DNA of 64,000 nt, taken from an uncultured Verrucomicrobiae bacterium. Its GTDB lineage: Bacteria; Verrucomicrobiota; Verrucomicrobiia; Limisphaerales; Palsa-1400. Numbering within the stretch: the stretch's first letter is position 1; each line of letters begins with the position of its first letter. The stretch lies in the NCBI GenBank assembly GCA_963702845.1, contig OY969763.1, positions 3,456,001-3,520,000 on the forward strand, given 5' to 3'. Below the pieces are notes generated by a model, which was given only the letters and a program-made list of their open reading frames with translations, had not been told where the DNA came from and made no database searches. The translations under genes were made by a program, and so were the position numbers. Shown one piece after another: positions 3,345 to 39,018 of the stretch.

Positions 3345-3510
3345 TTGAACTCCTTAATCTGACAACGGCAGAACCGTGTCGCGCCCACAATACCTTTGGC
3401 GCGTTGCATGCCCCCATAGGTAGCTCGAAACGTGCCACGACTGCTATTCAGGCGGTCGCGATTACGAAACAAAGACAGTTGCCGAGTCGCCGAAAAAGGA
3501 GAATTTGTAT

Positions 3511-3756
3511 ATGAACATCATCGTTTATAAAAAAACCGGCTGTCCCTGGGCGCAGGATGTTGAAGACTTCCTGAAGGAAAAGGGGCTTCAATACGAGGAA
3601 AGAGACATGATGAAGAAATCGCAATATCGGGATGAAGCGCAGCAACTATCAGGGCAGTCAAGGAGCCCGACGGTGATTATCGACGACAAAGTATTTCCAG
3701 ACACTGATGTCGACCATCTTGAAGAATATTTTGAATCGCGCGGTGTCGGCGTTTAG
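3511..3756 (+). CDS. Glutaredoxin family protein (monothiol CPWA)
   Basis: IIVYKKTGCPWA...SGQSRSPTVIIDD; AAGGAG RBS at 3496-3501 before ATG 3511. Confidence 0.85.
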   Translation: MNIIVYKKTGCPWAQDVEDFLKEKGLQYEERDMMKKSQYRDEAQQLSGQSRSPTVIIDDKVFPDTDVDHLEEYFESRGVGV

Positions 3757-4341
3757 CGCTGTAACAAACGTCGAAGTTGCGTCCGCGGGCGCCTCGATCG
3801 TCGTATCGGTCCAAACGACAAAGTCTGACTGGCGCTATTTTTCTTATCAACCGGCCATTGAGCGGCGATTCGGTTCTGAAGCTCTTCGTCGCTCCAACCG
3901 CGTTGGCGCAGACGAATGATTTGGGTTTCGTTGTGAACACGCAAGGCAGACTGTCGCGCTGAAAATGCAGATTGAGCGTTGGTTTCAAATAGCAGCGGGA
4001 TGATACGCGGCTGCTGCGTTTTATTTTCGTCTCGCCATTGTTGCGCGGCGTCAAACCACACTGCACGGAATCGTCGGATGCAGAATCGATTCCAATTTGG
4101 CGCGCTTAACGGGATCGCGAAATACTTCCGCAGCGAGTTCCCTCCGTAAGAGTTCTCCTTTTTCGTTGATCAATTGATCGCCCAATTCGCGTTTGATTTC
4201 GTTTAAAGCCGGTTGACCGGTTTGCACGATATCTCGCGCAATCTGGTCGGTATCAATTACTGCAACCCCAAGTTTTTGCAAAATACCGGCGGCAGTGGAC
4301 TTTCCCATTCCAACTCCGCCAGTTATTCCAAAAAGCGTCAC
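3753..4341 (-). CDS. coaE: Dephospho-CoA kinase (frameshift near 4060)
   Basis: GITGGVGMGKST P-loop, VIDTDQIAR, LESILHP in 4051-4341; continues IPLLFET...RIAAQWPVDKK in 3753-4061. Confidence 0.9.
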
Positions 4342-4345
4342 GTTG

Positions 4346-7300
4346 TTAGTGAGGCATGCGGAATGCGCGATAGTAACGGGTCGATGAACCCGTTGCCGCG
4401 CTATCGGTGATGGTAAATGTCCCGCCGACTGGCGTGTTGGTGCTGATCGTAATCCAGTTCGTCAGATCAGTTGAGAATTGCGACGATGTATGGTTCGCCG
4501 GTTTGACCATTAAGTGTTAATCTGGAAGCCGGTTCCATGCTGGTATGTGCCAGTCAACTGGGCGCTGGCAGCTTGAGTGACCGTGTTGACAAACGATGCG
4601 GTGTTGTCGATTCGTATACAGATCAGTGCATCGGCTGAAACAGTTGCGCTGAATTAGTCATGGCTCCAGAGGCTAACAGCCTGAACGCGAATGAATGCCG
4701 ACCGGACTGGAACCTGAAGCAAGCGATGGGAGACGGCAGTTAAGAAGATTGCCGCTGACGTCTGTGGTGCCGGATGCGATGGATGCAGAGACCAACGACA
4801 CGCCGGCCGGCAACGTGTCAGAAATCACAACATTAGTTGCGGCCGCAGGACCGGCATTATCAACTGTGACAACGTAGTCGACTAAATTGCCCGTGAGCAG
4901 GCTGGCAGGCGTGCCGGCCATGGTCAATGAAAGCGCTGCAGCCGGATTGACAGTATTTGCCACAGTCAATGTCAGCGACCAACCACCAATGCTACCTGAA
5001 TTACCCGCAGCGTCGTCGAGAACGTAGAGCGACCACGTTCCGTTCGCAGGGCTGCCGTTGAGCGCGCTCATCGTTGTGCTGGACGTGCCTGAGAATGCCG
5101 GGAAATGAAGTTGGCGAAAATGCGGAAGGTTTATAGCTGCCAGAAGTAATCTGCGCGGTGGCCGACAGATAGCTTGCTGCAGCGTCGTCCACTGTAATAT
5201 CGACATTGGCAATGCTATGCGCGCCGCCGCAATGTGCCATTGCGATGACACTTTGGCCGGTTGGGCTGACGAGCAGAACGTTGACGTCGTTCGGGAACGT
5301 ATGGGTTACCTTGCTCAGCTTGAGCACAGCTTTGCTGACAACACCCGGAACGTTCGAGATTGTGATCGTTGATGGATAAGGCGAAGCCGGTCCGGCTGAA
5401 GGAATTGTGACGCCCACGCCATTGGTGTATGAACTGGTTGTGGGAACTACGAACGAAAACGTTGGCGCGGGAAATTCATAGACGCCGTCTGCTAATGCCA
5501 GCTGAAGCACATTTGTGCTGCCCGCCGGCTGTGTTCCGATGAACGAATAGGTTGCAATAACGCTTGCTCCTGGAGCGATGCTGCCGAACTGCTGGAAGCC
5601 GATAATCGGAACGACGCCGCCGTTGTTTTGGACCTGGCTTTGTAGGTTCGTGGTCGCAGCGGTCCCAATATTCTTCAACGTGATCTGGATCGTGACAGTT
5701 TCGTTCGGGTCAACAGCACCGTTTTGAACGCCGTTTTCTAACACCAGTTTGACACCCGTTGGAACGATCACTGGCACCGGTTGCAGAACCGTTGAAGGGA
5801 TGGCAACTGAATTGTCTGCGTTATTTGCATCCGATGAACCGCTGACAACAGCTATAGTGTTGGTGACAAGCCCAGCAATGCTCGGTGCTACTGTAATCGT
5901 TGCGGTTGCCGCCGAATGAGGCGCCATGTTGCCAAACGCAATCGTCACGAGATTGCCACTTACACCGGCTGTGCCCTGGCTCGCAGTCGAATTGACGTAA
6001 GTGAAACCGGCGGGCAGCGGGTCGGTCAACGTCGCATTGAGAGCAACGTTCGGACCGCGATTCGTTACACCGATCGTGTAAACGAGATTATTGCCGATGG
6101 TAATTGGGTTGACTGAAGCCGTAGCGGACAGACCAAGATCAACAATTGGCAGAGCGACATTCACGGAAGGCGTCGCTGTATTGTTGCCAAAGTTAGCATC
6201 GAGTTCATTGGCACCGACACTTACCGAGTCCGTTTGTGTTCCGACAGCAGTTGCCTTTGCGGTAACGGTGAAGATCACATTACTGCCCAACGCAAGTTGT
6301 GGGAGCGTGAACACGATCGTTTGGCCGCTGGTTGTGTAAGTTGATTGTGGCGGGCCGGAAACGGAGACGAGCGACAACCCTGCGGAAAGCACGTTTGTCA
6401 TCTTCACGCCTGTCGCGGCAGCCGGGCCATCGTTCTTGACCCCGAGTTGGAACGTTACATTGTCACCAACCAAAGCTGATGTCGGCGTTGCCGGATTTAA
6501 TCCAGCGGTGACTGCCAGTTCAACCAGAGGATTGACCGGCTGGGCCGTCGTAATTGCAATGCTCCAACCACCTGCGATACTGCCTGAATCGCCCGTTGAA
6601 TCATCAGCTACATACAATGACCATGAGCCGTTTGGATTGGAGCCTCCGAAAGCAGCAATATTTGCGTCATAAGGTCCGACAGGCGGCGCGGGCGCGTTGG
6701 TTGGGAACACATAAGCAGGCGTATAGGACGCCGGCGCGTAACGCGTGGAAATCAACTGATTGTCGCTCGGGATTATCGTAGAAGCCGCAGAATCAAAGAT
6801 AGGGCTGATATTCGACACTGGAATGTCGCCACCGGCGTGGGCCATCAGAATCGATTTGCGTCCTGTAGGATGCACAACAAGCGTGCCGATATCTTGCGGA
6901 AACGTATGTGACAGCCCCGCCAACGTCACAGCGACTCGCGACACAAAGCCAGTGATACCTGACACCTGGATCGTGGACGGATATATCGAAGCGGCCTTCG
7001 GTCCGGAAGCCGTGGCATCAAGAATGGTAATTGCTGCGGAATTCGAAAACACCGTCGTGGTCGGAAGCGCAAACGTATAATTGATCGTCCCAACATTGGT
7101 ACCGTTATTTTGAACTTGAAGAGTGGCTGTGACGCTGCCGCCGTTTGTCCCAGTCGCAGCAAACGTAAATGGAGCCGAACCAATGCCATTGACTCCAATG
7201 GCACCATAGGACTGCTGGCCGCTTGGGGAATTCACGCCATTTCCAGACAACAAGGTCGCCGTAACCGATGATGCAGTGATGTTACCCTGGTTCTGCAAGC

Positions 7301-10300
7301 GCAGTTGGAGCGTTACAGTTTCGCCGATGTCGATAGTGCCGTTTGCAGGCGGGATACTTTCAGCAGTGAGCGTCGCTCCTGCGCCAGCAATCTTGATAAA
7401 GGGCTGCTGCACTGGTGTGTGCAAGATAAAGTTATTATTGGCAGTGTTCGGATCATTCTGAACCGAAGACACACTTGCCGCCGACAGAATGGTCGTCGGC
7501 AGTGCCGGAGCTTTCGCATAAACAATCGCAGTAACGACCGCGCCGGGCTGCATTGTCCCGATGTTTGCGGTCACGGCGCCGTTCTGATTCGAGATTGTTC
7601 CCGTCGTGATCGTGTTACTGAGAATGGTCGCACCACCTTGCACCGACTGAGACATTTGCACCGCCTGGGCAAGGCTCGGACCGTGGTTCACAACCGTGAT
7701 GGTGTAGGCGAAGTTGCTATTCAGAAGAACGCTGGCCGGATTCGCAACCATGGTGATTTCGAGGTCAGCAGCGGGATTCACGGTCGTCGAAACGGAGGCA
7801 TGGTTGTTTCCGGTGACAGGATCGAAAATAAAGCTGTCGGACGCTACTTGTGCAGAGGCATTGAAGATCCCCACGGCTGTTGGGCTGACGACAATCGTCA
7901 CTGTCGCTGTGGAACCTGCGGAGATATTGCCGAGGAGCGTTAAAATACCTGCCGAAGAATTTGCAAACATTCCCTGGCTCGTGGTCGAAGAAATAAATAC
8001 CACGTTCGCCGGCAGGAGGTTCGTTAGAACGACCCCTGTCGCAGTGAACGGCCCATTGTTGGTGACAACCATGGTGTAGGTAAGCGTTCCACCGGCGAGG
8101 ACGGGGTTCGGAGCTCCAATCATTGTCACCGCAATATCAGCAGTTGGCTTTTCGACGCGTGTTGTAGCGGTTGCCGAGTTGTTCGAATGATCCCCGTCGA
8201 CTGAAGGCGAACCAACATTCGCGGTGCTGGAGATGATCCCGTTGGTCAGCGGCGTAACAGTGACGGTCACGGTCGCAGTACCGTAAACAGATAAGCTGCC
8301 GATGTTAGCAGTGACGGTGCTCAACGACTGATTCACGGCTCCTTGCGTCGTTGTTGCGGAAACGAATTGAACGCTCGGGGGTAGCGATTGGTTCAAGACC
8401 ACCGCCTTCGCCGTCGCCGGGCCGAGGTTCGAGACAACCATCGTGTAAGTGAGGTTGCTGGTGACGAGCACTGGATCCGGGTTGTCGGTTATTGTGAGCG
8501 ACAGGTCTGAACCAGGACATTCGCCGCCGCCGTCGGTGCATACATATGGGGCGATCGACAACGACCAACAATTGAGCGTGCCAACGTCAATAAATACCTG
8601 ATCCACGATGTGCAGATACCAAGTGCCATTGACGTTGGTGCCGGTTTTAAGATTAAACGTGGCGAGCGCTTGTTGCGGTTGGAAAGAACCGACATATGGC
8701 GGCAAACCGGCAGTTATTGAATTCGTCGCATTGTCGTCGAATGTCGTGCGATTTGAATCTGGCGTGCAGTTGATGCCGTAGTTGTCACCATTAAAGCCGT
8801 TATTTTGCGACAGGAGAACTTTGGTACCGTCGGGCGCGATGAGTTCCATCATCAAATCGGAATCGAAGGTATGGGAGATAAACATTGACGCGGTCACGTG
8901 GGCAATCCCACCCAGAATATTTGTCACGGTTATCGGCGACATGATGCCGGTCTGATTAGCGTCAGGGATTACGACGGCGGTGTTGTTCTGGAATAAAATG
9001 GGAGCCCCATTTGTGCCGGTGAGAATTGTGATAGCGTTCGTCCGAATGTCCTGGTCCGAAGTGATGATGAGGTCAAACTGGAGCGGCGTGCCGCAGACCA
9101 GTTCAGGAGTCGTGCTGATCCCGAACGGCGTCAGACAAACAGCCGCATTTGTACCGGGAATGACGGGCCAGGTTGAAAAAGGTTGAGTGACAAACACACC
9201 GACGGTCTTTGAAATCAGTTTTGCGGAAATGCTTCCGACGATGAGCGTGCCCCGGTTTGTAAGGGTAATATTCATCTGGTTGCATTCGTCGGGATCGACG
9301 ATTCCGTTATTGTTGCCGCCGAGGAGCGAGTTGGTGAAATAGCCAAGGCCAGGAATATTGTATGATTCGATAACGCCGACAGTCGTCGAATTGATCGGAA
9401 CGAACGCTCCCGCACCCATACCCCGCTTGGCGAATCCGCGCCAGATTTCATCGGCATTTGCTGCGTTGTTGTCAATACGGTCAGCTGCGAGGATTGCATC
9501 GCGAGATTCAAGAAAGGTCGGATTAGCCGGACAGAGCTTCATCGCGTCAGTGGTGAGCTGCAGCATTTTCTGGTTGCCAATGTCGCCATATTTGGTGATG
9601 AGGTTTGCGCGCACTTCCCAAAGAGCACTGCACCAAACTTCGCCTGCATGATGCACTTCGTCCGCTTCGTTCGGATCAAACGGTGAGTAGACGGGGCTGT
9701 ACGGAATGCCGGTGTGCGGACTGACTTGGGTTGGGTCGATGTCCTTTAGGGTAAACGGATTCTTGCTCATGTCCGTTGTATAAGGATAGTGACGAACACC
9801 AAAGTAGTAGTTCGCGGTCATGCCAAAGAACTGATAGGTATCGTAACCGCCGAGAGCGTAATTGCCATTAACATCATCGCCTGGCTGGCTGAGAAGGGAT
9901 AATGCGTAGAAGTCCGACCATCCTTCTCCCATTTCGGACGGTTGTAGTTCGGTGATCGAAACACCGCCGCCAACAAGGCGCGTGCTTACGCCATGCGTAC
10001 TCTCGTGCAGGTAAACTTCCTGATCCACAGCGCCGTCACGAATTGGCGTTGGGAAATCGAAAACAAATTCAACAATATGACCAGATTGTCCGTCCGGTGC
10101 CGATAGGAAGAATGAGTTATCAGCGATTCCAACATCGGCGCCAAATTGCGTGTGCGCAATAATCGGATCCCCACCCAAGCCACCACGATTAAAATTATTT
10201 TGCTGATAGTTACCAGCAGCTTCGGTAAAGCCATAACCGTAGAGCGTGTCGTGATACCAATTTTGCCAATAAAACATATGAACCACTGAAGCATCTGAAT

Positions 10301-11558
10301 ACGTGCTCGGATCACTATTCAAATTGATCGGTATGTCGAACACACGATTTGGATTGCCAGTCGGACGCGCGCGGTCGGGCTGGAAATCGCCGTCGCGATC
10401 GAGAAACACATCCACGTTATTTCCGGTCGTCGAGTTGTTATTATCGTCGATCCAGCCGTTTGGCGATGCGTTGGTGTTCAACGCGGCAATTGTCACGAGA
10501 GTGCGAGCAACGGTTGTAGGTTGGAAGCTGGATGGAGTAGACAAGCCGGGAGAGAACGGAGATGGGCTATCGCTCGTCCACACGCGGTAGCTGGCATCGC
10601 TGATATGGCAGGTCAGATTCTGACGCAGCAGGATTTCACCGGTCTGCGCATCAACAAGTGTCTGGAAACGTTCCACAGGCGTACCGACTGTGACGAGTAC
10701 TTGCCAGCATAAGCGAACAGTGTTGGCATCCATCGGCAACCAAGTGAGATGAATGTAAGAATCGCCATAAATCTTACCGGGCGCTTTCAGGTTCTGCGCC
10801 TGTTCAGAACCATTAGCATCGGACACCGTTTGGATGTCATCAGCGTTTAGAGAATTTCCAACATCTTGCGCAGCCAAAACCAACGCCTGCCGTGCGGAAA
10901 TGGGCAAATTGGCTTTTAGCGCCGCGCGGGTCGCGGCGTCCTGATGTGCAGCCGCAGCTGGATCAGGCAGAAAATGCGTCGAAATGTTAACGAGTTCACT
11001 GTTCTTAGTCACGTGACCCATGAGCACTGCCTCGAATACCGAAATATCATCCAGTTGCTGTTCCCAGATCATGGTATGCAGGCCATTGTGCGCTGTCGTG
11101 TAATCGCGTTTGACCTTTGCACCATTTAATACTTCGCCGCCATGGCCGAAGAGAGCTGAGTGCTCGTTGAGGAATGATTTAATAATCTGCTGATGCGTTG
11201 CATTTTGCGCGTGGCTTTTGGCCAGAGCACCGCCCTGCCCGTTTGGTCCAGTGAGGAATCCATCGGCTGATTGCACCCAGTGCGGCGTATTCAGAAGGCG
11301 GTCGACACTGACTTTTGCGCCCGGCACAAGTTGTTCGAGCTTGTGTAAACCATTTTTCTTTTGCGCGGGTAACTCCGGTGTAAGCATCGCATGTCGTTTA
11401 TCAACATTCGGCGTGGGCGCATGGTCGCGATTGAACGCTTGTTGCGCACTGGCGCACTGCACAAGCGGCGTCAGCAAGAGCGCCGCGATGATGCAAGATG
11501 CCTGCCGCAAAACCCGGGCGGCGCAATTGATTTGTGAGGTTGTGGGTCGGTTTTTCAT
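4346..11558 (-). CDS. Secreted M36 (fungalysin) metallopeptidase with FTP propeptide, repeated proprotein-convertase P-domain-like modules and DUF11 repeats (~2400 aa; frameshifts at about 5100 and 4500-4700)
   Basis: YGFTEAAGNYQQNNF, HESTH (HExxH), MGEGWSDFYAL, EVHHAGEVW, NPTFLESRDAILAAD; DUF11 units (DLSLTITDNPDPV...LTYTMVVSNLGP); last frame ends STRYYRAFRMPH* at TAA 4346. Confidence 0.88.
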
Positions 11559-11568
11559 GGACGATGAA

Positions 11569-14500
11569 CTATTGCGCTCGCAGACGGAAGAATCGCGCGG
11601 AATTGGATGAGGACACCTGGAATTGGTATTGCCCGTTCACCAGCACTGCCGAGGAATCGGTCACTGGCGTCCACACACCAGAAGGTGCGAGGCTGGTTGT
11701 TTGCTCAATGACAAAGTTGCTTCCGGCCCACCCAGGCCACGTCAACACCAAACCGTTCTGGGCGGCAAACGCCCCGAGCGCTGGCCCGTCAATTTCAACT
11801 TTCGTAGAAGCGGTGTTGTTGCCCTTGAGGGGATCAAACGTTGCGCTGGCAACACGAACCGTTACCAGATTTGTCGTCCCGCCTAAGCCAACCGCCGATG
11901 CAGTAATCGTCACTGTCGGCGAGGTATTCGGATCCGAGTTCACTGGCAAGTCGCCGAGCGCAACCACGACGAGCCCGGTTGAGTTCGTAGTAATTACAGC
12001 AGAGCCGAGACTGCTCGAAACGCTTTGCAGCGCCAATCCAGCGGGCAATTGGTTGGTAAGCATGACGGCGGCTGCAGTCGAGAACCCGTTGTTGATTGCC
12101 CTCATCGTGATGGTGACATTGGTGTTGATCAGCACCGGGTTCGGACTAACCGAGATGGCAGCAGCCATGTCGGCTTGCGCTGTATCGACTTCAGTCAAAA
12201 CGCTTGCGATGTTGTTCGCCAGGTTCGGGTCAAACTGGTCTGCCACAACTGTGATCGTATTGGTGAATGTTCCAGTCACATCAGCGCGCACGAAGATGTC
12301 GAAGCTTTGCGTGCCATCCTTGAGCAGGTAGGCCAGCGGACAGCTCAACGTGTTGCTGCTGATGTTGAAAGTGCAGTTGCAAGTGTTGGATAGATACGTC
12401 ATACCGGCAGGCAGCGCATCAGTGAACACAAGATTGGTAGCGCCGGCAGGTCCGTAGTTACTGAACGTAATGTGGTAGTTAACAACGTTACTGACAGTCG
12501 CGGGAACAAGTAATTGTGTCATGCTGACTGCGAGATCGGCACTCTGGTCCAGGCGCGCGCCTGTCGTTAAGTTAAGGATCCAGCCGTTGTTAATCGTGCC
12601 GCTGTCGTGGTAAGTCGAGTCGACGATATACAGCGACCACAGGCCATTCGGGTTGATTCCGTTGAAAGCACCCATCGACACCTGGTAAGGTCCAGGCGGA
12701 GCGTCTGGGAACGACGGATAGAAAAACGGCTCGCTCGCGGCCGTGCCGAGCGTTGGCTTGTTAGTGCCAGTCGTAATTGGCGCCTCATTCGGCAATGCTG
12801 GATATGAATCATCGAACGTCAGGCGAACGTTGCTAATGCTGAAAGGCCCACCATCCGCTGCCATGAGCAGTGTGTTCGGAGCAGACCCGCTCGAATTATT
12901 TGGAGCTGCCAACAATGCATCAATGTCGTCAGGATACGTGTGGCTCACGCCGGCCAACGTTGCCGTGACTTTCGCAACAGTTCCGACCACGCCAGAGACG
13001 TTCATCTGTGCCGGATATGGCGTCGCTTTAGTCGGTGCGTTTGAACTGTCATTAATCACGATCGTGGCCGAATTCGTGAAGGAATAGGTGTGACCACCAA
13101 TCGGGAATGCGAACAGGCCCGTTCCCAACGGTCGACGAATAGCGCCGACAACATCCTCGAGCACGAAGGTCGCAGTAATCGTTTGTCCGTTTGTCGCATT
13201 CGCTTTGAACGAAAAGCGCTGAGACACAGACGGACCATTCTCGATGAGCGTCCCGTACGATCCCGAGTTACCCACACCATTATAAGGTGTCGCGGCAGTC
13301 GCGTTCGTGACGCCGTTGGTATTCAGAAGCGTCGCGATTAGGTTCGTTGTGTTACCACCACCCGTATTGCGGAAGGCGAAGTAGAGCGTGACGGTTTCGC
13401 TCGGATCAATCAAACCGTTGACCGGACCGCTCTCGCTCAAGAGCGCAACACCAGCGGGAACAACCAGACTGCCGTTATCTTCAACAATCGTCAGCGTTGC
13501 CGTTGTTGGCGTAATCAGCACTGCGCCCGTTGAAGGATTGGACAGCGTTAACACCACCGTTTTATCGCCGGTAATGATGTTGTTATCTTGAACGACAACA
13601 TCGAACGTCTTAATCGTCTCACCGGGCAGGAATAAAAGCGTGCCGTTGGTGGCCGCGTAGTTAATCGGGGCGGTTGCCGACCCATCTTTGGTTGCGAAAT
13701 CTACGCTCGCCGATCCGTTGGTAACACTGGTGCGTTGCACAGTGATCGTAACGGCATGCCCGTTCTTCAATACACGATAATTTGCGCTGGAGAACCGCAG
13801 TCCGATATCGTTGTCCAGCACAGTCAGCACAGCATTGGAGCTGGTAATTTTAGCTCCGGTGGAAGGATTGAACAGGTTCAAGAGCACCGTTTGGTCACCG
13901 TCAACAGCCGTGTTATCAATGATCGGGACAGTAAACGTCGCGGTGGCCTGGCCATTGACGAATGTCAACAAACCGTTCGTGCCAACATATCGTAATCCGG
14001 CGCGGGCGGTGCCGTCAGCCGTCGAGAAACCGACAGTAACAGTCCCGGTATTAATGGAACTTCGGTTGACTGTGATCACTGCGTTCGTCCCGCCTTCATT
14101 GACGACGTAGGTCGGGCTCGAGTAGCTCAGGCCAGAGTGTGTATTGATAATCGTCACCACAGCCGAATTAGGCAAACCAAGGAAGGTGTTTGGCGCCGGG
14201 TTCCTCAAGATAATAGAAAACTGTTCATCTGCGGTGATCTGACCGTCGTCCAGAATCGGGATGAAGATCAACTTGGTCACTTCACCGGGTCCGAACGTCA
14301 ACGTTCCCGACGTTGTTGTGTAATCCTCACCGGCCACCGCGACACCGTTAGTGCTCAGCGCGTTGGTGGTTGAATAGTCGACGGTCACAGTTCCGTTCGT
14401 TCCACTGTTGCGAACAACAGTGACAAACACAGAACCGGCATCCTGACGCACGAAGTACGCCGGATTCGCGAACGTGAAGTTCACATGATCATCGTTGATC

Positions 14501-21555: not shown

Positions 21556-21588
21556 ACTAAGGTCCTGGTTGCTGTTCCCCTGCGCCCC

Positions 21589-25875: not shown

Positions 25876-25881
25876 ACAATA

Positions 25882-27283: not shown

Positions 27284-28662
27284 TGCGCAGCGTTAAGGGT
27301 GTAAGCCTGGCCGTATAGATCAAACCCAAACCGCGCGATAAAGCTGGTCCACACAACCAGGAATCGATCAACCCCGTTCCATGCAACCGTCGGATGCATC
27401 TGCTGACTCACGCGTGTCGTATTCACCAAAAATTCATCTCCGGAAACCTGCGATCCGTTCGCCACAAATCGACCGAACACACCTTCGCGATTACCGTCCT
27501 GTCCAAGGCTCGTCCAAACTGCCATCACACCCGACGGGCAAGCCGCCAGCGCGGGATGATATTGGTCGCCAAAACGGAACGAGTTAATCAGGAATTCATC
27601 GCCGCGCGCAGTCCCCTCCGGATTAAAGGCGCGGCCTTTGATTTCCCAGCTATTGGTTTTGACAATCAAATCACGTTCGCTCCAGGCCGCCATGAAACCG
27701 CCATCGCTCAGACCAACAACAGCCGGGTTCGCGCAAAGATTCACCGACGATGAACTCATCAGAAATTCATCCGTGACCGGCGTGAGGTTCGGCGCGAAAA
27801 TTCGGCCGTAAATGTCAACGCTGTCCAACACGTTGTAGTTCTGCTGTTCAGAAACCCATGTGACAATGAAATTGCCGTTGGCCAATAAAGCCACGGCTGG
27901 AGAACGTCGTCCACCGCGATCACCGCGACTGGAATAGCCCGCGTCGCTAAATTGGTTCACTTCAAACTCATGCGTCGGCGTCAGCAGACCCTTCGCGCTG
28001 ATCTTGCGGGCGAAAATGCCGCTGGGGCAACCATCCTGCCATGCGCTCTGCCAGACGATGATCGCGCAACCGTCATTCAACGCCGCAATCACAGGCGCGG
28101 ACTGCGCATCCTTCAAGTAAGTGTTAACGCGTAAATCCGCAGTGAGCCCGAGATTATTCGTCTTGATCAGGCGCGCATAAATATCCGAGTTGCCTGTCGC
28201 AGTGCTCTGCCAGACGAACAACGTCAATCCATTCGTGGCCAGCAAGGCCGCTTGCGGGTTAAACTGGTTTTGAATTGAAATCGCATTGATCTGCGTCGTC
28301 TTCGGCACGGTCGCAAACGTCGTTCCCGAAAATCGACGCATCCCGATCCCTGAACCATTTCTATCCACACCGTTATCCTCCCAGGTCACCAACCCACCGT
28401 TCGATGTCAGCACCAGATTTGGATGAACTTGATCGCCAGGTATATTACCGAGCACGGAAAATTCGCTTCCCGCTGGAGCAAGGTAGTTACCACTTACATC
28501 TTTTGCCGCAACTGAGCTATCGACAGAGCCGCTAATTGTCGTCGCGGAGAGTCCCGTCAGTAGCGGAGTTGTCTTGGCTTCATCAGCCGAAACTGCTGTC
28601 ACCAAAACAGTGCAAAACCCTAGTAAACACAGGGGTTTTATAGCGCGAAGCAGGAACGACAT
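27280..28662 (-). CDS. Secreted repeat protein with EFxVN(T/Q)...Q..P.VA repeats (beta-propeller-like)
   Basis: Repeats DLRVNTYLKDAQSAPVIA, EFEVNQF...SPAVA, EFLINSFRFGDQYHPALA, EFLVNTTRVSQQMHPTVA; signal peptide from ATG 28662. Confidence 0.8.
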   Translation of the reverse strand: MSFLLRAIKPLCLLGFCTVLVTAVSADEAKTTPLLTGLSATTISGSVDSSVAAKDVSGNYLAPAGSEFSVLGNIPGDQVHPNLVLTSNGGLVTWEDNGVDRNGSGIGMRRFSGTTFATVPKTTQINAISIQNQFNPQAALLATNGLTLFVWQSTATGNSDIYARLIKTNNLGLTADLRVNTYLKDAQSAPVIAALNDGCAIIVWQSAWQDGCPSGIFARKISAKGLLTPTHEFEVNQFSDAGYSSRGDRGGRRSPAVALLANGNFIVTWVSEQQNYNVLDSVDIYGRIFAPNLTPVTDEFLMSSSSVNLCANPAVVGLSDGGFMAAWSERDLIVKTNSWEIKGRAFNPEGTARGDEFLINSFRFGDQYHPALAACPSGVMAVWTSLGQDGNREGVFGRFVANGSQVSGDEFLVNTTRVSQQMHPTVAWNGVDRFLVVWTSFIARFGFDLYGQAYTLNAAQ

Positions 28663-28699
28663 ATCAGTATTTATTTGTATCAAGCTGGGCTCGCGATGT

Positions 28700-29653
28700 C
28701 TATGCATTCTGGTTGAAAAAGTCAGATTTTCTGAGCCGCGCCTGCTCCAGCTCGTGTAATAAAGTGCGAAAGCCCCACCCTTCATAAAGGTGGTGCAAAC
28801 TTTCAAAGTCGACTTCCCGGACCGCTAACTCTTCCACTGGTGGTCCGCATTCGACCTTGTCATTTAATCGCACTAACTCTTGGTTTCGCCGGACTGCCTC
28901 CGCCGAAGATTGCAAGCTCCCCCGTAATCGTTCCGAACTGACTTCGTCGATGCGACGATAAATACCGTCGATCGAACCAAATTGCTTGAGTAACTCACAA
29001 GCAGTCTTTGGGCCAACACCCGGCACTCCGGGGATGTTGTCCACCGTGTCACCAATTAAGGCAAGCCAGTCCACGATTTGTTCAGGTTCCACGCCACTTT
29101 TCGCGCGGACATGTTCCCTGCCCCACAACGGCTGCTCTTTGTCAGTCGGGATATGCAGCCAGACATGGTCACTGACTAACTGCATGAAATCTTTATCAGA
29201 ACTGGCGATAACTACTTCATAACCGCCGGCACTCGCCCTCTTCGTCATTGCTGCAATGCAGTCGTCCGCCTCACAACCGTCTTTGACGTAAGAGCCAACG
29301 TTAGAAGCTTTCAGCCACGCGACAATTTGATCGAGCTGCTGCTCCATCTCCGAAGGCATCTCCTTGCGCTGTTGCTTGTATTGCGGCAGCAACGTCATTC
29401 GTTCGGCGGCGTTGCCACCATCCCACATCACCAACAAATGCGTCGGACGAACTATCTCCTGGATTTTCGTCAGCATTCGAATGAACCCATAAATGGCGTT
29501 CGTCGGCTGTCCAGTCGGAGAATTCAGTCTGCGAATCGCGTAAAATGCGCGATAGGCGTAGGAATGGCCGTCCACCAATAACAATCGCGACCGCCCTGCT
29601 GGCAGGACGGGCACCTGGGCTTGCGCCTCAGTTTGTTGCGATTTACTTGGCAT
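28700..29653 (-). CDS. Stand-alone 5'-3' exonuclease / flap endonuclease (PolA N-terminal PIN + H3TH domains)
   Basis: LLVDGHSYAYRAFYA, PTNAIYGF, EADDCIA, SDKDFMQL, GDTVDNIPGVPGVGPKTA; no polymerase domain. Confidence 0.92.
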   Translation of the reverse strand: MPSKSQQTEAQAQVPVLPAGRSRLLLVDGHSYAYRAFYAIRRLNSPTGQPTNAIYGFIRMLTKIQEIVRPTHLLVMWDGGNAAERMTLLPQYKQQRKEMPSEMEQQLDQIVAWLKASNVGSYVKDGCEADDCIAAMTKRASAGGYEVVIASSDKDFMQLVSDHVWLHIPTDKEQPLWGREHVRAKSGVEPEQIVDWLALIGDTVDNIPGVPGVGPKTACELLKQFGSIDGIYRRIDEVSSERLRGSLQSSAEAVRRNQELVRLNDKVECGPPVEELAVREVDFESLHHLYEGWGFRTLLHELEQARLRKSDFFNQNA

Positions 29654-29673
29654 GGCGAATTTACCTTCTTTGG

Positions 29674-29700
29674 GTAGGGCGCGTCGCTCCGCGCGCGCCG
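29674..29700 (+). repeat. GTAG-type REP-like palindrome
   Basis: GTAG followed by ggcgcgtcgctccgcgcgcgcc, an imperfect hairpin, in the intergenic gap. Confidence 0.5.
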
Positions 29701-29750
29701 CTTCTTCAGCCTTCAGCCTTCAGCTTTCAGACTTCTTCCTTCTGCCGCCG

Positions 29751-32450
29751 TTATGGATTCCCAGGCGCCGGTTGCGGCGGAATCTGAGTGCGCGCAAAAG
29801 GCATCTCTTCATCCGTGTGCAAACGATTACCAGCGGGATCAATCAGGGTCGGCGTTACAAATACGAGCAGGTTTTTCTTGCTGCTTTCGTTCGACTCACT
29901 GCGGAACAGGCGGCCGAAGAACGGCAGATCGCCCAGGACCGGCACTTTGTCTTTAATCTTGCGAATATCTTCGGAAATCAATCCGCCGAGCACAACCGTC
30001 TGACCGTCCCACACATTGCAGGTCGTCACCACTTGGCGCACGCGCAAGCGTGGCAGCGGCAATACTGCAGTCAACGGAATACCAACAGTTGATCCACCGA
30101 CCGATTGCGCCTGCGGCACGAATTGTCCCGGATTGTCGTAACCAAGGAATTCGGTAAACGTCGGGATCATGACCATCTGGATCGAGTAACCATCAGCCGA
30201 AACCGTAGGCATGACATCCAACGTCGGACCGAATGGCAACTGGTCGGTCGAAAACGTAATCGAACTCGCAACGACACCAACGCTAGCAGTGCTGTTGTTG
30301 TTCGCCGCGCCGGAACCACCAGCCGTCTGGCTGAGATCGACACCGGTAACAATCTGCACGAGGTCCAACACTGAAATGTGTGCCTGACGTCCGCTCAACG
30401 TCGTCACTTTTGGTGCCGACAGCAGGTCAGCTCCTGAACGTTGTTCAATCGCGCGAATCACCACACGAAATTGCGGGTCAGTCAAAATACCAGTGATCGT
30501 TCCTATTGCCGGAACGTTGTTGTTATTGCCAACGGTCTGTCGCAATCCCGCTGTCAGCAACTGGTCAGAGGCAGAGGTTCCAATCGCGCCCGCTCCAGGA
30601 ATAAACGTTCCATTTCCGAGAGGAATACCGCCACCGGGGAAGATTCCGCTTGGATTTGCCGTTGTTGGGTTGCCTTGGAAGGAGGGCGCTGTGCCAGCTT
30701 GTAAACCAATGCTACCACCAGCAGTCGTGGTGTTTCCCAGGAACCAATCAAAGCCCAGAGCTCTGCTGTCATCCTGGGTCATTTCCGCGAACTTCGATTC
30801 AATCGTCAATTGCGGCGGCGCCTGGTTCAACATTTCAACCGCGGCCTCAATGATCTCCAGGTCCTGCAACGATCCGCGAACCAGAAGCAAACCAGTGCGG
30901 TCGTTGAAAAACACGCTCTTGCCCGGATCGGTCAACGTCACGCCTGCAGCCGTAAAATAAGCACGAACCATTTCATGCAACGTCTGCGTGTTGTTCGTGT
31001 GTGTCACAAAATTAATTCCAACGCCTTGACCAACCCCACCACTTTGACCACCACGGCCGCCCCCTTGCGACGCGGCCAGTCCAATGCTCGGAATTTCAAC
31101 TGTTGGCGAACTATTTTGGCCACCACCACCGCTGCTGCGGCCACCGCCCTTGCCGCCGCCGCCACCTTGACCAAAGTTACTCAAGTCCAGCAAGCGAACG
31201 CTTTCCAAACCTTGAATGAACGTATTCGGGTCAACGTGAAATTGTTTGCTATACAGGGCCACCGCTTCCGGCGGGCGCGGCGCAAAAACAACCGCATAGT
31301 CTTCGATCGTATATTTAATCGGAACGTCGGCAACCTTCGTGATCGCATCCAACACATCCGCCAACGTGACATCGTTCAACGGCGGAGAAATCTTAATCGT
31401 CACCTGGCTCAGATCGACTGTCGTCGGAGCAGCAGCCAAGGGCGCGGGCGTCGTTCCCGGAGGCGCGTTTACATCTGGCCCGGGCCCGGCACTCACGCCA
31501 GCATCGCTGTGCGGGTTGATCAGGAAGTTAATACCCCTCTGGTCGGGATCACGCTTCTTGGATTCATCGCGCAGGGTCTTGAGCACTTCACTCAAAGGCA
31601 AGTCGTAGCTGACTTCGTTAAGGTGAATTTGGTCGAGCTTGGCTAAAATATTTTGACGGCCTTTCGTCGTATAGACGAGGTTCGTGCGAGCCATCGGATT
31701 GGCGATCCCAAGGCCTTCAGACTTATGGCTGGGCAACCAGGAGGCTTCCACCGAAAGCACGCGTTCCTTTTCATATTCCTCACGTGCTGACGCTCGGTTG
31801 CGATACGTCGCTTCTTTAATCAGGTCCAGATAGTAATAGGCCGCCTTGTTATTCGGCTCAATCGCGATAGCTGCTTTCAGCTCAACTTCCGCTTCCTTCA
31901 AACGCCCCATTTCATAAAGCAGTTTTCCGTTTTGAACTTTGGTCGAAACATCAATCTGCCGTTGTTGCTCCTCGGGGATTTTCTTCAGGACATCGACACT
32001 GGGACGGGTGCCGCGGCTCTCCTCGACATCGCGATCGAGCTCCAGCTTCATCCGCCGCAAACTTTCATTCTGCGGCGCGACCTTCACAGCCGCATCCATT
32101 TGGACCTTCGCTTCCACTAAATCGCCGTTCTTGCGCGCACGATTCGATAATTCCACACGCATCCGCACCAAACCGTCGATTGCCGCCGCCTTATCCGCAT
32201 TAGCGCGCGGATCATTGGCCACGGAATATGGAATCAGGGCAACCGCTTCCTGGTAAGCCTTTGCAGCGTCAACAACACGGTGCTTATTCTCAGCCTCGCA
32301 GGCTTCGATCACTTTCTGGTGAAGGCGGATAGTTGCTTCCTGGCGCTTCACTGCTTCATCTTCCGCGATGGTGGCGGCGTCCTGCGCGCGCAAGCCGGAA
32401 GCAACGATAAGTACTGTCAATAGAACAATTAATTTGGCTGCGTCTCTCAT
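29751..32450 (-). CDS. Outer-membrane secretin (GspD/PilQ family, Amuc_1098-like) with N-terminal TPR region
   Basis: APKVTTLSGRQA, VWDGQTVVLGGLI, DKVPVLGDLPFFGRLFRSE, KKNLLVFVTPTLID; TPR segment GKLLYEMGRLKEAEVELKAAIAIEPNN; signal peptide from ATG 32450. Confidence 0.92.
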   Translation of the reverse strand: MRDAAKLIVLLTVLIVASGLRAQDAATIAEDEAVKRQEATIRLHQKVIEACEAENKHRVVDAAKAYQEAVALIPYSVANDPRANADKAAAIDGLVRMRVELSNRARKNGDLVEAKVQMDAAVKVAPQNESLRRMKLELDRDVEESRGTRPSVDVLKKIPEEQQRQIDVSTKVQNGKLLYEMGRLKEAEVELKAAIAIEPNNKAAYYYLDLIKEATYRNRASAREEYEKERVLSVEASWLPSHKSEGLGIANPMARTNLVYTTKGRQNILAKLDQIHLNEVSYDLPLSEVLKTLRDESKKRDPDQRGINFLINPHSDAGVSAGPGPDVNAPPGTTPAPLAAAPTTVDLSQVTIKISPPLNDVTLADVLDAITKVADVPIKYTIEDYAVVFAPRPPEAVALYSKQFHVDPNTFIQGLESVRLLDLSNFGQGGGGGKGGGRSSGGGGQNSSPTVEIPSIGLAASQGGGRGGQSGGVGQGVGINFVTHTNNTQTLHEMVRAYFTAAGVTLTDPGKSVFFNDRTGLLLVRGSLQDLEIIEAAVEMLNQAPPQLTIESKFAEMTQDDSRALGFDWFLGNTTTAGGSIGLQAGTAPSFQGNPTTANPSGIFPGGGIPLGNGTFIPGAGAIGTSASDQLLTAGLRQTVGNNNNVPAIGTITGILTDPQFRVVIRAIEQRSGADLLSAPKVTTLSGRQAHISVLDLVQIVTGVDLSQTAGGSGAANNNSTASVGVVASSITFSTDQLPFGPTLDVMPTVSADGYSIQMVMIPTFTEFLGYDNPGQFVPQAQSVGGSTVGIPLTAVLPLPRLRVRQVVTTCNVWDGQTVVLGGLISEDIRKIKDKVPVLGDLPFFGRLFRSESNESSKKNLLVFVTPTLIDPAGNRLHTDEEMPFARTQIPPQPAPGNP

Positions 32451-32485
32451 GGTTTTAATGGGAGTTTTGGAAAGCGAGATGGTTG

Positions 32486-33277
32486 TCAGGGTGTGGTTGC
32501 GCCGGTCCAATTTATGGTTGTTTGTTTGCCGTTCGATTCGGCCGAGACTCTAACGGCATTCTTACTGATAGCAATAACTTTGTAAGTCTCTCCAGCAAGC
32601 GTAAATGTGTCACCTACATGCTTGTTCTTCAGACTTAGATTTGGCTCGGGTGGATAGGTCAAATCGACCACGTAACCGTCCACTTTTTGGAACGGCACGG
32701 TCTTGGTTACAGCTATCAATTCTTGCGTGTCGAGCATTTCAATTGAGAACTCCGTCGGATCTTCCGGAGCACCTTTGATGCCCATCAGCGTAAATACCGG
32801 CTGTCCGGTAACTTTCGCCGTCTCTTTGACGTGCAGATAGACGTTGTGTTTCTTGCCCGATTCCTTCTGGTAATAGAAGTAATAACCAGTCCCCGCCGCC
32901 CGGTCGAACGCCACTGTCAAATACAGAGGACGGATATCTTTCGCAACTAACGCGTCCGGACCTTCCACGTAAATCTTCACAAACGTATTGCTCGAAGTCA
33001 GCTTCCACGTCACCGGATTGAACAGGTTGTGGTATTCAGGTGGCGTCCCACGACCCAGTTTCACTTCCACTGGTTGCTTCAACTGTTCCAATGCATTTGA
33101 TTGCGAAGTGAAATCCGCCGCCTTCCACGGTCTGTTCGGTGGTTCGCTACCGGCCTGCACATTGATGGTTTCCTGCGCCGAGCTGATCATCTTCGGCAGC
33201 CACACCGCCACGCCGAGCAGGCACAGCAGCACCACGCTCATGATGATCTTTTCGTAATGTCTCTTAATGAATTCCAT
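32486..33277 (-). CDS. Amuc_1099-like pilus/secretion system protein (PilP/GspC-position component)
   Basis: MEFIKRHYEKII followed by one TM helix; lies between the Amuc_1100-like gene and the secretin. Confidence 0.7.
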   Translation of the reverse strand: MEFIKRHYEKIIMSVVLLCLLGVAVWLPKMISSAQETINVQAGSEPPNRPWKAADFTSQSNALEQLKQPVEVKLGRGTPPEYHNLFNPVTWKLTSSNTFVKIYVEGPDALVAKDIRPLYLTVAFDRAAGTGYYFYYQKESGKKHNVYLHVKETAKVTGQPVFTLMGIKGAPEDPTEFSIEMLDTQELIAVTKTVPFQKVDGYVVDLTYPPEPNLSLKNKHVGDTFTLAGETYKVIAISKNAVRVSAESNGKQTTINWTGATTP

Positions 33278-33290
33278 TTAACGAGCGCGG

Positions 33291-34268
33291 CTACGGTTTC
33301 ACGGGTTTAAGTTGAATGGCGTCCACCACCAACGTCACAAACAACGGTTTCTCACGAATAACGGTCACTGGACCTGACGGACCTGCTGCACGAGGCCCAT
33401 ACACCGGCGCTGCCGGAGTGGGCGTCGGCGCTCCGCCACCACCCGGACCATATCGCTCCGCCATGGTCAGCGGCCTTTGCGCCGCCGGTGACGGATACCG
33501 TGACTGAGCTTGTGGTGGCTGATAGCCAGGCGTCGCTCCCTGCGCTTGCGCCTTCGACGCCGCCACAACCACACTTTTCACAATGTAACAATTCGTCGAC
33601 GTAATAAACCCTTCCAATACCTGCGACAATTCGCGCGTGAAACAAACGAAACTGAGTTGATAAGGTGCAATCACACCAAGTTGATTCGTCACCCACGTCG
33701 TCTGCAGAAAATCAGTGCCGCCCTGATCGCAGGGATACACCGGCACTCGCTGAATTCCGTCCAGCTCATTGACGTGCGCGCGATAAATAATGTCCAAAAT
33801 TCCCTGCATCTCATTGAACTGCTCCAGCCAACTCGGAATGCAATTGGTCGGGAACGCCAATTGCCCCGTCAGTCCCGAAAACGAAAACGCATACTGCGGA
33901 TCCGGAAGTTTCACCGCCACCGTCTTCGCACCCGTTTGCCATTGCGCAATGTGCCGGCTCAACTCCGCGGCAAACATCTTCTCATCCATCGCCGGCACTG
34001 CCGGGAACGGCGCGAACACCGTTTGAAATTGTCCAAGCAAACCGCGCATCTGCGCCGCTTCAGCCTTCGCCGCGTCAATGTTGTCCGGCGTCGGATACGG
34101 ATTCATATTCCGCAATCCGGTCAATTCGTTCATCACGGAATCGAAATCGTCTTTGACCGCCTTGTCTTCCGACATGCTGTTGGTCAACGAATACCCAGCC
34201 CATCCGGCCAGCAGCAACCCCACCACTGCCGTGATCACAAAAATCAGATTGCGTTTGATCCAGAGCAT
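33291..34268 (-). CDS. Amuc_1100-like pilus-system protein (PilO-like)
   Basis: MLWIKRNLIF, N-terminal TM, coiled coil, PYQLSFVCFTRELSQVL ferredoxin-like segment; 1-bp overlap with pilM. Confidence 0.75.
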   Translation of the reverse strand: MLWIKRNLIFVITAVVGLLLAGWAGYSLTNSMSEDKAVKDDFDSVMNELTGLRNMNPYPTPDNIDAAKAEAAQMRGLLGQFQTVFAPFPAVPAMDEKMFAAELSRHIAQWQTGAKTVAVKLPDPQYAFSFSGLTGQLAFPTNCIPSWLEQFNEMQGILDIIYRAHVNELDGIQRVPVYPCDQGGTDFLQTTWVTNQLGVIAPYQLSFVCFTRELSQVLEGFITSTNCYIVKSVVVAASKAQAQGATPGYQPPQAQSRYPSPAAQRPLTMAERYGPGGGGAPTPTPAAPVYGPRAAGPSGPVTVIREKPLFVTLVVDAIQLKPVKP

Positions 34269-36130
34269 TACAATTTTGCTGGTTTCTTCAGGTTAACCGT
34301 CACCGTAAAAGTGAACGTGTTCGTCGACTCATCCTTCTTCCGCTCAAGCGTCCCGAGTTGGATCGGCGGCGCGAAAAACGGGCTGGCCCTCAATTCATCC
34401 TGTACTTGGTATGCCAGGGCGGAGTTCGCGACTTCCAGCGGTTGGTCCACCGCCCGGCAACGGAACGTCACGGAAGATATTTCATTCGCGTTCCCACCAC
34501 CCGGAGCACCTGCCGGTGGCGCTTGCGGCGCTGGCGTCGAAGAACGTTCCGCTATTCCGTAGCGCGCTGCGTTACCCATAACCGCAGAATTGCCACCGCC
34601 ACCGCCACCAGGATTGTCTGCCGCGCCTGCGACGAACGGCGTGCCATTCGGATAAATCGGGGAAAATTCTTCAACCCACACACCAACCTCGAGATTCGGC
34701 GCGTTGGTTTTCATCGCCGCCTTCGTCTTCAATTCCGATTGCAACATCACCCGGCGCAATTCCATCAAAAGTTTGGCCCAATACTCGCGATCCTCACCCA
34801 AACCGCCCAATTGATTCCCCTGCTCTTGCAGCATTCTGGTGTCACCCATCGCCGCTTTCAATTCACCAGCTTTTTGCTTCAGGGGCCCGAGTGAAGCGCG
34901 CAATTCTTCCAGCTTGTTCTTGCGCAACGTCACGATATGCGATTCCGCCCACCACACCGCAAACACCATCAACGCCAGCGCGTAAACAGCCGCGATAAAG
35001 AACGGCTTCTTCTGCGAAAATTCCTGCCGCTGAATCGAGCTTTTCGGCATCAGGTTCAGTTCCACCGGGCAATGCGCCAGGTCGCGCAATCCCAAGCCAA
35101 CTACTTCACCAAACGAATGGGCGTATTTTGAAAGGTCTTCCAGATCGATCGTCGGATCGATTTCGATATTCCGGAACGGATTGAAATACTCGACTGACAA
35201 ATTCAGCTTCTCAGCAAAAAATTGCGCCGTGTAAGGCATGATCGACGCGCCGCCCGACAGGAACAACTGCTGCGGCGCTGCCCCGCCCTGTTGTCCGCGG
35301 TAAAATTGAATCGTCTGATTAACCTGAATGTGCAAACGCGTCATCACCTGACGCGCAATCTTGGAAATAGCCGCCGCCTGCGGATCATCAGGCTCTTCGT
35401 AAGCACCACCGAGACTCACAAATCCCTTGTCGACCTTCACCGCTTCCGCTTCTGCAAATTTCAGCTTCGCTTCATTGCCAAACTCCTGCGTGATCGCGTT
35501 CGCGCCGATATTGATACTGCGCGAATACACCTTGCCCTTCTCGAAAAACAGCAAGTTACTCGTCTTCGCCCCGATATCCAAAAGCATCGTGCAACCTTCG
35601 AGATCGCCGTAATTATATCGGAACGCATTGCACAGCGCTGCCGGCGAAACGTCCACCAGCTTCAACTTCAAACCAGCCCCTTCCGCAACGCGGAACAGAC
35701 CTTCCACAATCTCCGCCTTCACCGCCACCAGCAACACTTCCAACTCATTCGTCGGCGACGTTCCAAGAATCTGGTAATCCCAGACAACTTCTTCCAGCGG
35801 AAACGGAACGTTTTGCTGCGCTTCGTAACGGATAATCTGCGTGACCTTCGAAGTATCTACCGGCGGCAGCTTGACGAACTTGGAAAAAACGTGAAAACCC
35901 GGCGCGCAAACATTGATCTGTTTTGCTCCAAAACTTTTTTCGGAAAGCACTTCCTTCAGTGCAGTCAGAATTGCAGCCTCGCGCGTGGACTCTTGCGCGC
36001 CCTCGGCGCCGAGCGGTTTGATGGCATATTGCTTAAGGCGCAATCCACCGGCTTCGTTCGGTTCGAATTCTGCCAGCTTTAGACTGCCCGCCCCAAAGTC
36101 AACTGCCAGGAATGATTTCGTGTTGAGCAT
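34268..36130 (-). CDS. pilM: Type IV pilus assembly PilM-like ATPase fused to a PilN-like C-terminus (Amuc_1101-like)
   Basis: LAVDFGAGSLKLAEF, YEAQQNVPFPLEEVVWDYQ, LLDIGAKTS, LFLSGGAS, VGLGLR; then ELNLMP, TM and coiled coil. Confidence 0.9.
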   Translation of the reverse strand: MLNTKSFLAVDFGAGSLKLAEFEPNEAGGLRLKQYAIKPLGAEGAQESTREAAILTALKEVLSEKSFGAKQINVCAPGFHVFSKFVKLPPVDTSKVTQIIRYEAQQNVPFPLEEVVWDYQILGTSPTNELEVLLVAVKAEIVEGLFRVAEGAGLKLKLVDVSPAALCNAFRYNYGDLEGCTMLLDIGAKTSNLLFFEKGKVYSRSINIGANAITQEFGNEAKLKFAEAEAVKVDKGFVSLGGAYEEPDDPQAAAISKIARQVMTRLHIQVNQTIQFYRGQQGGAAPQQLFLSGGASIMPYTAQFFAEKLNLSVEYFNPFRNIEIDPTIDLEDLSKYAHSFGEVVGLGLRDLAHCPVELNLMPKSSIQRQEFSQKKPFFIAAVYALALMVFAVWWAESHIVTLRKNKLEELRASLGPLKQKAGELKAAMGDTRMLQEQGNQLGGLGEDREYWAKLLMELRRVMLQSELKTKAAMKTNAPNLEVGVWVEEFSPIYPNGTPFVAGAADNPGGGGGGNSAVMGNAARYGIAERSSTPAPQAPPAGAPGGGNANEISSVTFRCRAVDQPLEVANSALAYQVQDELRASPFFAPPIQLGTLERKKDESTNTFTFTVTVNLKKPAKL

Positions 36131-39000: not shown

Positions 39001-39018
39001 GTTCTGCAAGAGACGACT

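Follow-up and report, generated by a model that had tools for sequence, protein, structure and literature searches.

Amuc_1100 has been studied heavily, and the locus described here raises the question of what the secretin machine encoded together with it moves or builds. We analyzed a stretch of 64,000 nucleotides, hereafter the window, from an uncultured Verrucomicrobiae bacterium (contig OY969763.1; G000:C1:3456001-3520000, where G000 denotes the genome of the window, a single contig of 6.03 Mb), in which genes of an Amuc_1098-type machine head a long minus-strand run that also encodes five secreted proteins. In the sections of PMC13174399 considered here, what such a machine moves or builds is still put as a hypothesis, and the Akkermansia system MUL2 (Amuc_1098-1102) is discussed for Verrucomicrobiales, Chthoniobacterales and Methylacidiphilales, with the order of the window not among them; according to an excerpt of PMC4960237, Amuc_1098 is more abundant than any other outer-membrane protein of Akkermansia muciniphila. 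The locus is real, and what is new is an altered form of a known machine: across the order it is accompanied by three secreted proteins 3' of the secretin, H460, H470 and H1428 (the triad), and lacks Amuc_1102 (MUL2A), which in Akkermansia is a pilin-like subunit. The comparative pattern is strong and the mechanism is one that we infer, namely that this order-specific form of the phylum-wide Amuc_1101-1098 operon would be a type IV filament-driven surface-display route, a reading to which we tentatively give a little less than an even chance.

The gene run

The run opens with four machine genes: a PilM-PilN fusion resembling Amuc_1101 (34268..36130; 620 aa, PF11104 at E 6.5e-40, one internal transmembrane segment at about residue 375), an Amuc_1100-like gene in the PilO/GspM-like position (33291..34268; 325 aa, N-terminal transmembrane segment, NF038287 at E 2.7e-17), an Amuc_1099-like gene in the PilP/GspC-like position (32486..33277; 263 aa, N-terminal transmembrane segment, a weak match to NF042425), and an Amuc_1098-like secretin with tetratricopeptide repeats (TPR) (29751..32450; 899 aa, PF00263 at E 2.4e-34). 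They are followed by a 5'-3' exonuclease resembling the PolI N terminus (28700..29653; PF02739/PF01367), the triad genes for H460 (27280..28662), H470 (25882..27283) and H1428 (21589..25875), a giant Calx-beta/delta-60 (DUF5122)/DUF11 surface protein (11569..21555), an M36 metalloprotease head carried by a stalk of P-domain, DUF11 and CARDB type (4346..11558), and coaE, encoding dephospho-CoA kinase (3753..4342; PF01121, 41% in tblastn, true 3' end uncertain). All lie on the minus strand.

These eleven genes had been listed in this order in a preliminary description of the DNA, and all were recovered, as was their close spacing, with gaps of -1, 13, 35, 97, 37, -4 (ATGA), 6, 33, 10 and 3 bp from pilMN to coaE. 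Assignment with hidden Markov models likewise bore out the homology of the four machine genes to Amuc_1101, Amuc_1100, Amuc_1099 and Amuc_1098, in the same order (E 2e-146, 3e-17, 0.0045 and 2e-108). The five signal-peptide proteins (about 460, 466, 1428, 3328 and 2403 codons) have hydrophobic, signal-peptide-like N termini by a crude hydropathy check. Terminator-like sites showed no excess in the run (23 versus 23.8 and 20 versus 25.3 in shuffles), in agreement with the earlier statement that no obvious internal terminator is present, and neither a PilB/PilT or PilC family match nor a prepilin motif was found within it. That description was silent on frameshifts in four of the genes, on the absence of Amuc_1102 and on the C-terminal tails treated below.

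A conserved triad that mirrors Amuc_1102

For a count of synteny we took 36 secretin loci of relatives, favoring long contigs, and excluded one (L040) that holds a different secretin, leaving 35 order loci from 34 genomes and 17 families. H460, H470 and H1428 follow the secretin or the exonuclease in that order in 34 of these 35 loci, and the same arrangement was found in two further genomes. Triad identity across the loci is 24-55%, while the upstream genes and those of the slot beyond H1428 change freely. The secreted genes are accordingly linked to the secretin in relatives, so that the lack of linkage which would have told against the preliminary description was not seen; as a single unit, however, only the three hypothetical genes hold order-wide, and the Calx and protease genes form a variable slot that is empty in three of the loci followed.

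The gene for H470 is present in 141 of 151 order genomes (G000 counted) and in none of 200 genomes outside the order, and the H1428 N-domain is likewise found in 0/200 outside. All 19 outside-order loci examined for it carry a small exported gene just 5' of pilMN that matches one profile, 13 of the 19 being seeds of that profile; the copy in L073 matches Amuc_1102 (PDB 7DSZ) with 462 bits. An Amuc_1102 profile of 17 sequences hit 149/200 outside genomes, its 17 source genomes included, and none of the 151 order genomes (again with G000), a result that a very divergent homologue could escape; the curated Amuc_1102 model also hit 0/151, with a positive control at 228 bits. As judged by these searches, the triad is present in the order and Amuc_1102 is missing from it, a mirror distribution. 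In one locus outside the order (L075:18090-19798, minus strand) a gene that looks epimerase-like by eye lies 5' of the Amuc_1102 homologue, and in the family of the window an epimerase-like gene abuts pilMN, as if Amuc_1102 had been deleted in place there.

Ten order genomes gave no H470, and H1428 is missing as well in five of them. The locus runs off the contig in four (G378, G360, G317, G033), the secretin matches of three start at contig ends (G271, G281, G308), and two have no secretin match (G345, G383), so that we count G007 as the only real triad loss. In G007, H470, H1428, H460 and the promoter motif described below are absent together, and the exonuclease adjoins coaE. As a marker family, H470 is near-universal in the order and restricted to it; it comprises 1641 representatives at 50% clustering and has no Pfam model. 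Two observations stand beside these counts: the genome bin G032 contains the whole locus twice, in divergent copies (L034 and L035) that reflect duplication or contamination, and stand-alone proteins of 1242-1311 aa with the H470 domain first are encoded away from the secretin locus (L120:8358-12086, L121:9919-13779, L122:3892-7827).

Predicted folds of the triad proteins

H460 is a secreted repeat protein of no Pfam family. Among named Atlas clusters it lies closest to BNR-repeat proteins (0.85-0.87), which is no more than a lead, and from the repeats and these neighbors it is a probable beta-propeller. A PDB sequence search with the extensions of H460 orthologues gave FN3 matches only. Complex prediction for H460 and H470 reached a median of 0.14 against a mark of 0.32.

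H470 was modeled with AlphaFold2 (AF2) through an intact orthologue, P0015, that is 52% identical over the N-terminal 311 aa (pLDDT 89). All of the top 15 VIA matches are zinc metalloprotease-type folds, at low Z scores of 2.7-3.9 and root-mean-square deviations (rmsd) of 2.7-6.1 over 92-145 aligned residues. The zinc-binding motif HExxHxxGxxH was not found, HExxH occurring in 0/119 H470 homologues, and 113 of the 119 have a glutamate at the position aligned with the second histidine. H470 is probably a dead metzincin, with a metzincin-like fold that lacks the zinc ligands. A PDB sequence search with H470 returned nothing useful, and with Foldseek neither the H470 model nor that of the H1428 N-domain had a match at E 0.001.

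H1428 combines a right-handed beta-helix (25779-22921; N-domain AF2 model, pLDDT 88) with an InlB-type repeat (PF18998) and a terminal CTD2 domain. The top VIA matches of the N-domain are the adhesins HxuA, EtpA and HMW1 (Z 14.9-15.3, rmsd 2.7-7.5, 171-454 aligned residues). Beta-helical enzymes trail these TpsA adhesins closely, many within 2-3 Z, so that the fold does not give the function of H1428. Note that 7DSZ, the structure of Amuc_1102, is absent among the listed VIA matches of the H470 and beta-helix models, of which beta-helix residues ~150-480 were barely compared. A database protein 86% identical to H1428 is labeled Limisphaerales, which we take to be the same order as Pedosphaerales.

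The variable slot

A Calx protein is encoded 3' of the beta-helix gene in 15/15 same-family loci with enough sequence; 12 family loci were traced beyond it, and in these a DUF11-stalk gene and then coaE come next. Family relatives carry a pro-kumamolisin-type S53 head on this stalk (confirmed with Pfam in two loci, assigned by similarity in the others, and partial in one); the window has M36 instead, with PF02128 at E 4e-97 and 326 bits versus a cut-off of 23.3 and with HESTH, an instance of HExxH, in the translation. The slot has M36 heads also in G046 and G045 and subtilases of class S8 in G054, G037 and G032; in G053, G272 and G041 no gene separates H1428 from coaE. The protease heads of the slot therefore belong to three unrelated classes: M36, S53 and S8.

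C-terminal tails

Both giant proteins end in a terminal domain of ~75 aa closing in FYR-like residues, the FYR tail (11572-11811 in the Calx protein, ~4346-4516 in the M36 protein). An FYR profile gave 143 hits in G000, 116 of them within 15 residues of a stop; its 86 seeds were chosen for the terminal motif, which makes that part circular, and three seeds were removed by eye, but 44 of the terminal hits were not seeds. The second tail, CTD2, spans ~330 aa (~22580-21589 in H1428), belongs to no Pfam family and was found in 27 open reading frames (ORFs), 25 times terminally. Together FYR and CTD2 tails terminate ~140 ORFs in G000. A third tail class consists of 13 internal FYR hits (L058 and 12 ORFs) that continue for ~320 residues, a continuation that is TIGR02597 in the one tested.

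The two main tails exchange on one orthologous gene. Of the 31 complete H1428 orthologues, 13 terminate in FYR and the other 18 in CTD2, and a quick tree of the H1428 N-domain (31 rows, the window included and L007 left out) requires at least 3 changes between them, forced by starred branches. Such a pattern is what one expects of address or anchor modules that are interchangeable. Among H460 orthologues of 34 loci, 12 end in FYR, one in CTD2 and 21 in neither, and H470 orthologues are tail-free in 34/34 loci. FYR found no match among type IX secretion system (T9SS) tail models, whether 21 tails were compared with Pfam (E up to 1) or 8 with NCBIfam; against PDB sequences it gave weak FN3/discoidin-type matches. 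A signal-peptide heuristic (71/99 versus 430/951) was too crude and was not used. Several FYR-rich genomes have an Amuc_1098-like secretin and no PilMN fusion match (L087:13848-16121; G197, G071, G149).

The machine core and its old neighbors

Against the Akkermansiaceae equivalog models all four core proteins score below the cut-offs: 489 of 650 bits for NF045709, 63 of 180 for NF038287, 17 of 50 for NF042425 and 364 of 750 for NF042912. These cut-offs are narrow, because only 13/201 genomes pass that of NF045709. The PilM-PilN protein exceeds the cut-off of TIGR01175, the PilM family, and the secretin scores far below that of PilQ. The Amuc_1099-like gene has syntenic orthologues in 35/35 order loci, a secretin match was obtained in 57/61 relatives, and the PilMN fusion occurs in 174/200 genomes outside the order. 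Judged from these matches, the Amuc_1101-1098 core is a pilMNOPQ-like set with a phylum-wide distribution.

In 20 outside-order loci picked for long contigs, coaE and rho lie 3' of the secretin in 11 and the exonuclease gene in 5; the latter is present in 29/35 order loci. A figure legend of PMC13174399 likewise names a secretion channel, dephospho-CoA kinase and rho as MUL2 neighbors. We read exonuclease and coaE as ancestral neighbors of the secretin across the phylum, not as cargo, so that their co-location in the operon is by itself no evidence of a shared job.

Variation of the core itself was seen in tandem secretins, of which L084:5089-13517 has two of Amuc_1098-like type with two PilT ATPases one gene further on, and which L076 and L079 show too. 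Proteins in the Amuc_1099 position of outside-order loci L074, L078, L079, L081, L082 and L088-L091 contain a DxDxDG-type motif, possibly a calcium-binding one, which also occurs in extensions of some H460 orthologues. A PDB sequence search with the Amuc_1100-like protein gave nothing useful.

A promoter-like motif

A tight sigma-54 (-24/-12)-like pattern has a single match on the minus strand between 3300 and 37000, at 36301..36316, 186 nt 5' of pilMN. In 17 of 18 same-family loci a looser form of the motif stands 134-181 nt upstream; it was found in only 1/20 correctly cut regions from other families, and in a mean of 1.8 of 40 regions after shuffling. The upstream region of L029 was left out of this comparison. 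Sigma-70 scans of the run stayed below shuffled expectation. The pattern supports one conserved upstream promoter for the run, and rpoN is encoded in G000.

Motor, pilin and secretion genes elsewhere in the genome

Outside the run, G000 has 14 T2SSE and 16 T2SSF family matches, and the genome has 5 secretin matches in all. Five PilT ATPases lie over the cut-off, 77 ORFs carry a prepilin motif (short ones included), a pilB-pilT-pilB-pilC cluster is located at C1:6.5-12.4 kb, a second pilN-O-P-Q-like set was read by eye at C1:210-214 kb, and there are two separate gspD-type clusters. A search for PilY1 gave no match, but its control gave none either. Between parts of a second gsp-type cluster sits an H470 paralogue (L062:1119-2102; G000:C1:3986933-3988102), beside an ORF that appears transposase-like by eye.

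A proposed export route and rival explanations

In the reading that we prefer, one sigma-54 promoter would drive a long transcript, and the five secreted proteins would cross the inner membrane by Sec and fold in the periplasm, after which a pilus or pseudopilus, powered in trans, would push them through the Amuc_1098-like secretin. The C-terminal tails would route proteins to the surface or hold them there. In place of Amuc_1102, the triad would form a fixed extracellular module of beta-helix adhesin, propeller and dead metzincin, the last acting as scaffold or peptide binder, and the slot would carry exchangeable stalked adhesins and proteases. Export through the secretin is a step that we only infer. 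We favor this reading because the triad order is fixed in 34 of 35 loci and H470 and Amuc_1102 are distributed as mirror images; because tails swap on H1428, both giants end in FYR and three protease classes share one slot; because a single conserved promoter-like motif goes together with no excess of terminators; and because G007 lost triad and motif together.

Several results weigh against it. The metzincin assignment of H470 is weak (Z <4), the mirror pattern amounts to one evolutionary event and is not a statistical test, and G007 keeps the machine core in the absence of both triad and Amuc_1102. The distribution of the tails does not follow that of the machine: outside the order FYR occurs in 84/200 genomes versus 174/200 for PilMN, family f47 has the machine in 32/32 genomes and tails in 2/32, the Akkermansia-type family f36 has them in 17/17 and 3/17, and G237 shows 6 tail matches with no Amuc_1098- or Amuc_1101-type match. 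Export of the same proteins could run through two other gspD-type clusters, one with an H470 paralogue adjoining, and unrelated genes (exonuclease, coaE, rho) are tolerated in the operon.

A different use of the same hardware, which we consider unlikely without dismissing it, would have the core build a type IVa-like pilus that retracts and serves in attachment or uptake, with the triad as a tip or priming module standing in for PilY1 or Amuc_1102, and with the giants merely co-transcribed and leaving via a canonical type II secretion system (T2SS). The pilMNOPQ-like layout, the PilT ATPases, the pilB-pilT-pilB-pilC cluster and the prepilin-motif ORFs all speak for a pilus, as do two pilT genes 3' of tandem secretins in G226, and the parts of PMC4960237 and PMC13174399 considered describe Amuc_1098 as PilQ and MUL2 as an attachment pilus; the prepilin motif, however, is in none of the triad proteins, the tails of the beta-helix protein are common to ~140 unrelated ORFs, which is cargo-like rather than the mark of a dedicated pilus part, and a second pilN-O-P-Q-like set lies elsewhere in G000. 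Slightly less probable, in our view, is a history of hitch-hiking in which a single insertion, in the ancestor of the order, brought a surface-protein cassette into an operon of strong expression, where it stayed while its export takes another route, the loss of Amuc_1102 being an unrelated event on the same branch. Housekeeping genes are carried at the locus across the phylum, other lineages also host unrelated genes there (a 3136-aa Ig-repeat protein in G231, for example), tail and machine distributions differ, and H470-domain proteins occur away from the locus, all of which speaks for such a history; yet the triad holds order and position while its neighbors change, and the one clear loss, in G007, takes all three genes.

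Beyond the display route that we prefer lies a wider proposition, improbable in our estimate: the Amuc_1098-type machine would be a general surface-protein exporter of Verrucomicrobiota that reads folded FYR/CTD2 address domains, with Amuc_1102 replaced in this order by the dead-protease/propeller/beta-helix module at the outer end of the channel and ~140 tailed proteins per genome as cargo. If true, addressing in the style of type IX secretion would here operate on the hardware of a type IV filament.

Relation to known systems

The closest known system is MUL2 of Akkermansia (NF042912, NF042425, NF038287, NF045709, NF042424), which shares the core order and has coaE downstream, as here. It differs in having Amuc_1102 5' of pilM, a gene found in none of the 151 order genomes; ~25 kb with the triad and the giant proteins separate secretin and coaE in the window, and the four core genes stay below the equivalog cut-offs. 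Type IVa pilMNOPQ has a like layout, a PilM match over the cut-off and motor and platform genes in trans with PilT present, and PilB, PilC, PilT and pilin-type genes do lie in G000 away from the run. Here, however, PilM and PilN are fused, the secretin has a TPR N terminus and falls far short of the PilQ cut-off, and the PilO and PilP counterparts are assigned only through Amuc families and position.

The preliminary description had suggested a T2SS-like exporter. PilM/N/O/P-like proteins are counterparts of GspL/M/C, and the locus does resemble a T2SS in joining a secretin and such parts to Sec-exported proteases and adhesins as neighbors; the run is nevertheless without gspE, gspF or pseudopilin genes, the gsp clusters of the genome are separate, and T2SS cargo is not known to share a terminal domain. 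With its pilMNOPQ-like layout, five PilT over the cut-off and two separate gspD-type clusters in the genome, the suggestion was not established. FYR recalls the C-terminal domain of the T9SS of Bacteroidota in being a terminal module, of ~75 aa, on >100 unrelated exported proteins, and M36 proteases occur with T9SS and sortase-type tails as well. FYR differs in matching no T9SS tail model and in being interchangeable with a second, ~330-aa tail, and its sorting role is putative. H1428 shares the right-handed beta-helix of the TpsA adhesins HxuA, EtpA, HMW1 and FHA (Z 13-15), but has no sequence family match, and the run has no TpsB gene.

In the literature we found no description of the triad, of the order-wide loss of Amuc_1102 or of the tails; MUL2 in this order may be treated in the supplements of PMC13174399. 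What these comparisons point to is a possible, so far undescribed way of placing proteins on the cell surface. The locus can be regarded as a natural swap experiment, in which the core is the same, the extracellular module is another and candidate cargo is physically linked. Verrucomicrobial tails that are widespread and uncatalogued gain a candidate export route from it, and two of them are seen to exchange on a single orthologous gene.

Frameshifts in the run

About ten frameshifts fall in four genes of the run in this assembly: one in H470 (~26365), three in the Calx gene (~20890, ~19690, ~15130), several in the M36 gene (~5100 and 4350-4700) and at least one in coaE. Their number might suggest that the downstream genes are decaying pseudogenes in this strain, which we consider very improbable. 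Elsewhere in G000 we counted 7 frame changes in 9886 aligned residues (6/31 genes, 0.24 per kb), from which ~8 are expected in 32 kb, and rpoN and one gspE are split as well. Since this background rate matches and both coaE and rpoN are broken too, we attribute the breaks to indels in the assembly. Reading frames are intact in close homologues of H470 and H1428, and the four broken genes are mostly single ORFs in relatives, with the assemblies of L002 and L006-L008 also broken.

Neighboring genes

Just past coaE, at 212-3472 on the minus strand, lie one or more secreted FG-GAP-repeat genes, heavily frameshifted and with an FYR tail at 212-430; a further ORF terminating in FYR is found at 55786-56607 on the plus strand. 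On the other side of the run, 37087-41559 (minus strand) holds a gene of the Hsp70 family that scores under the cut-offs for DnaK and HscA, together with a DUF3857/transglutaminase/DUF2569 protein, in the place where family relatives have an NAD-dependent epimerase-like gene 5' of pilMN. Beyond it, a terminase large subunit-like gene (PF03237, PF17289) with a small, unassigned upstream gene at 41671-43988 (minus strand) is a probable prophage remnant.

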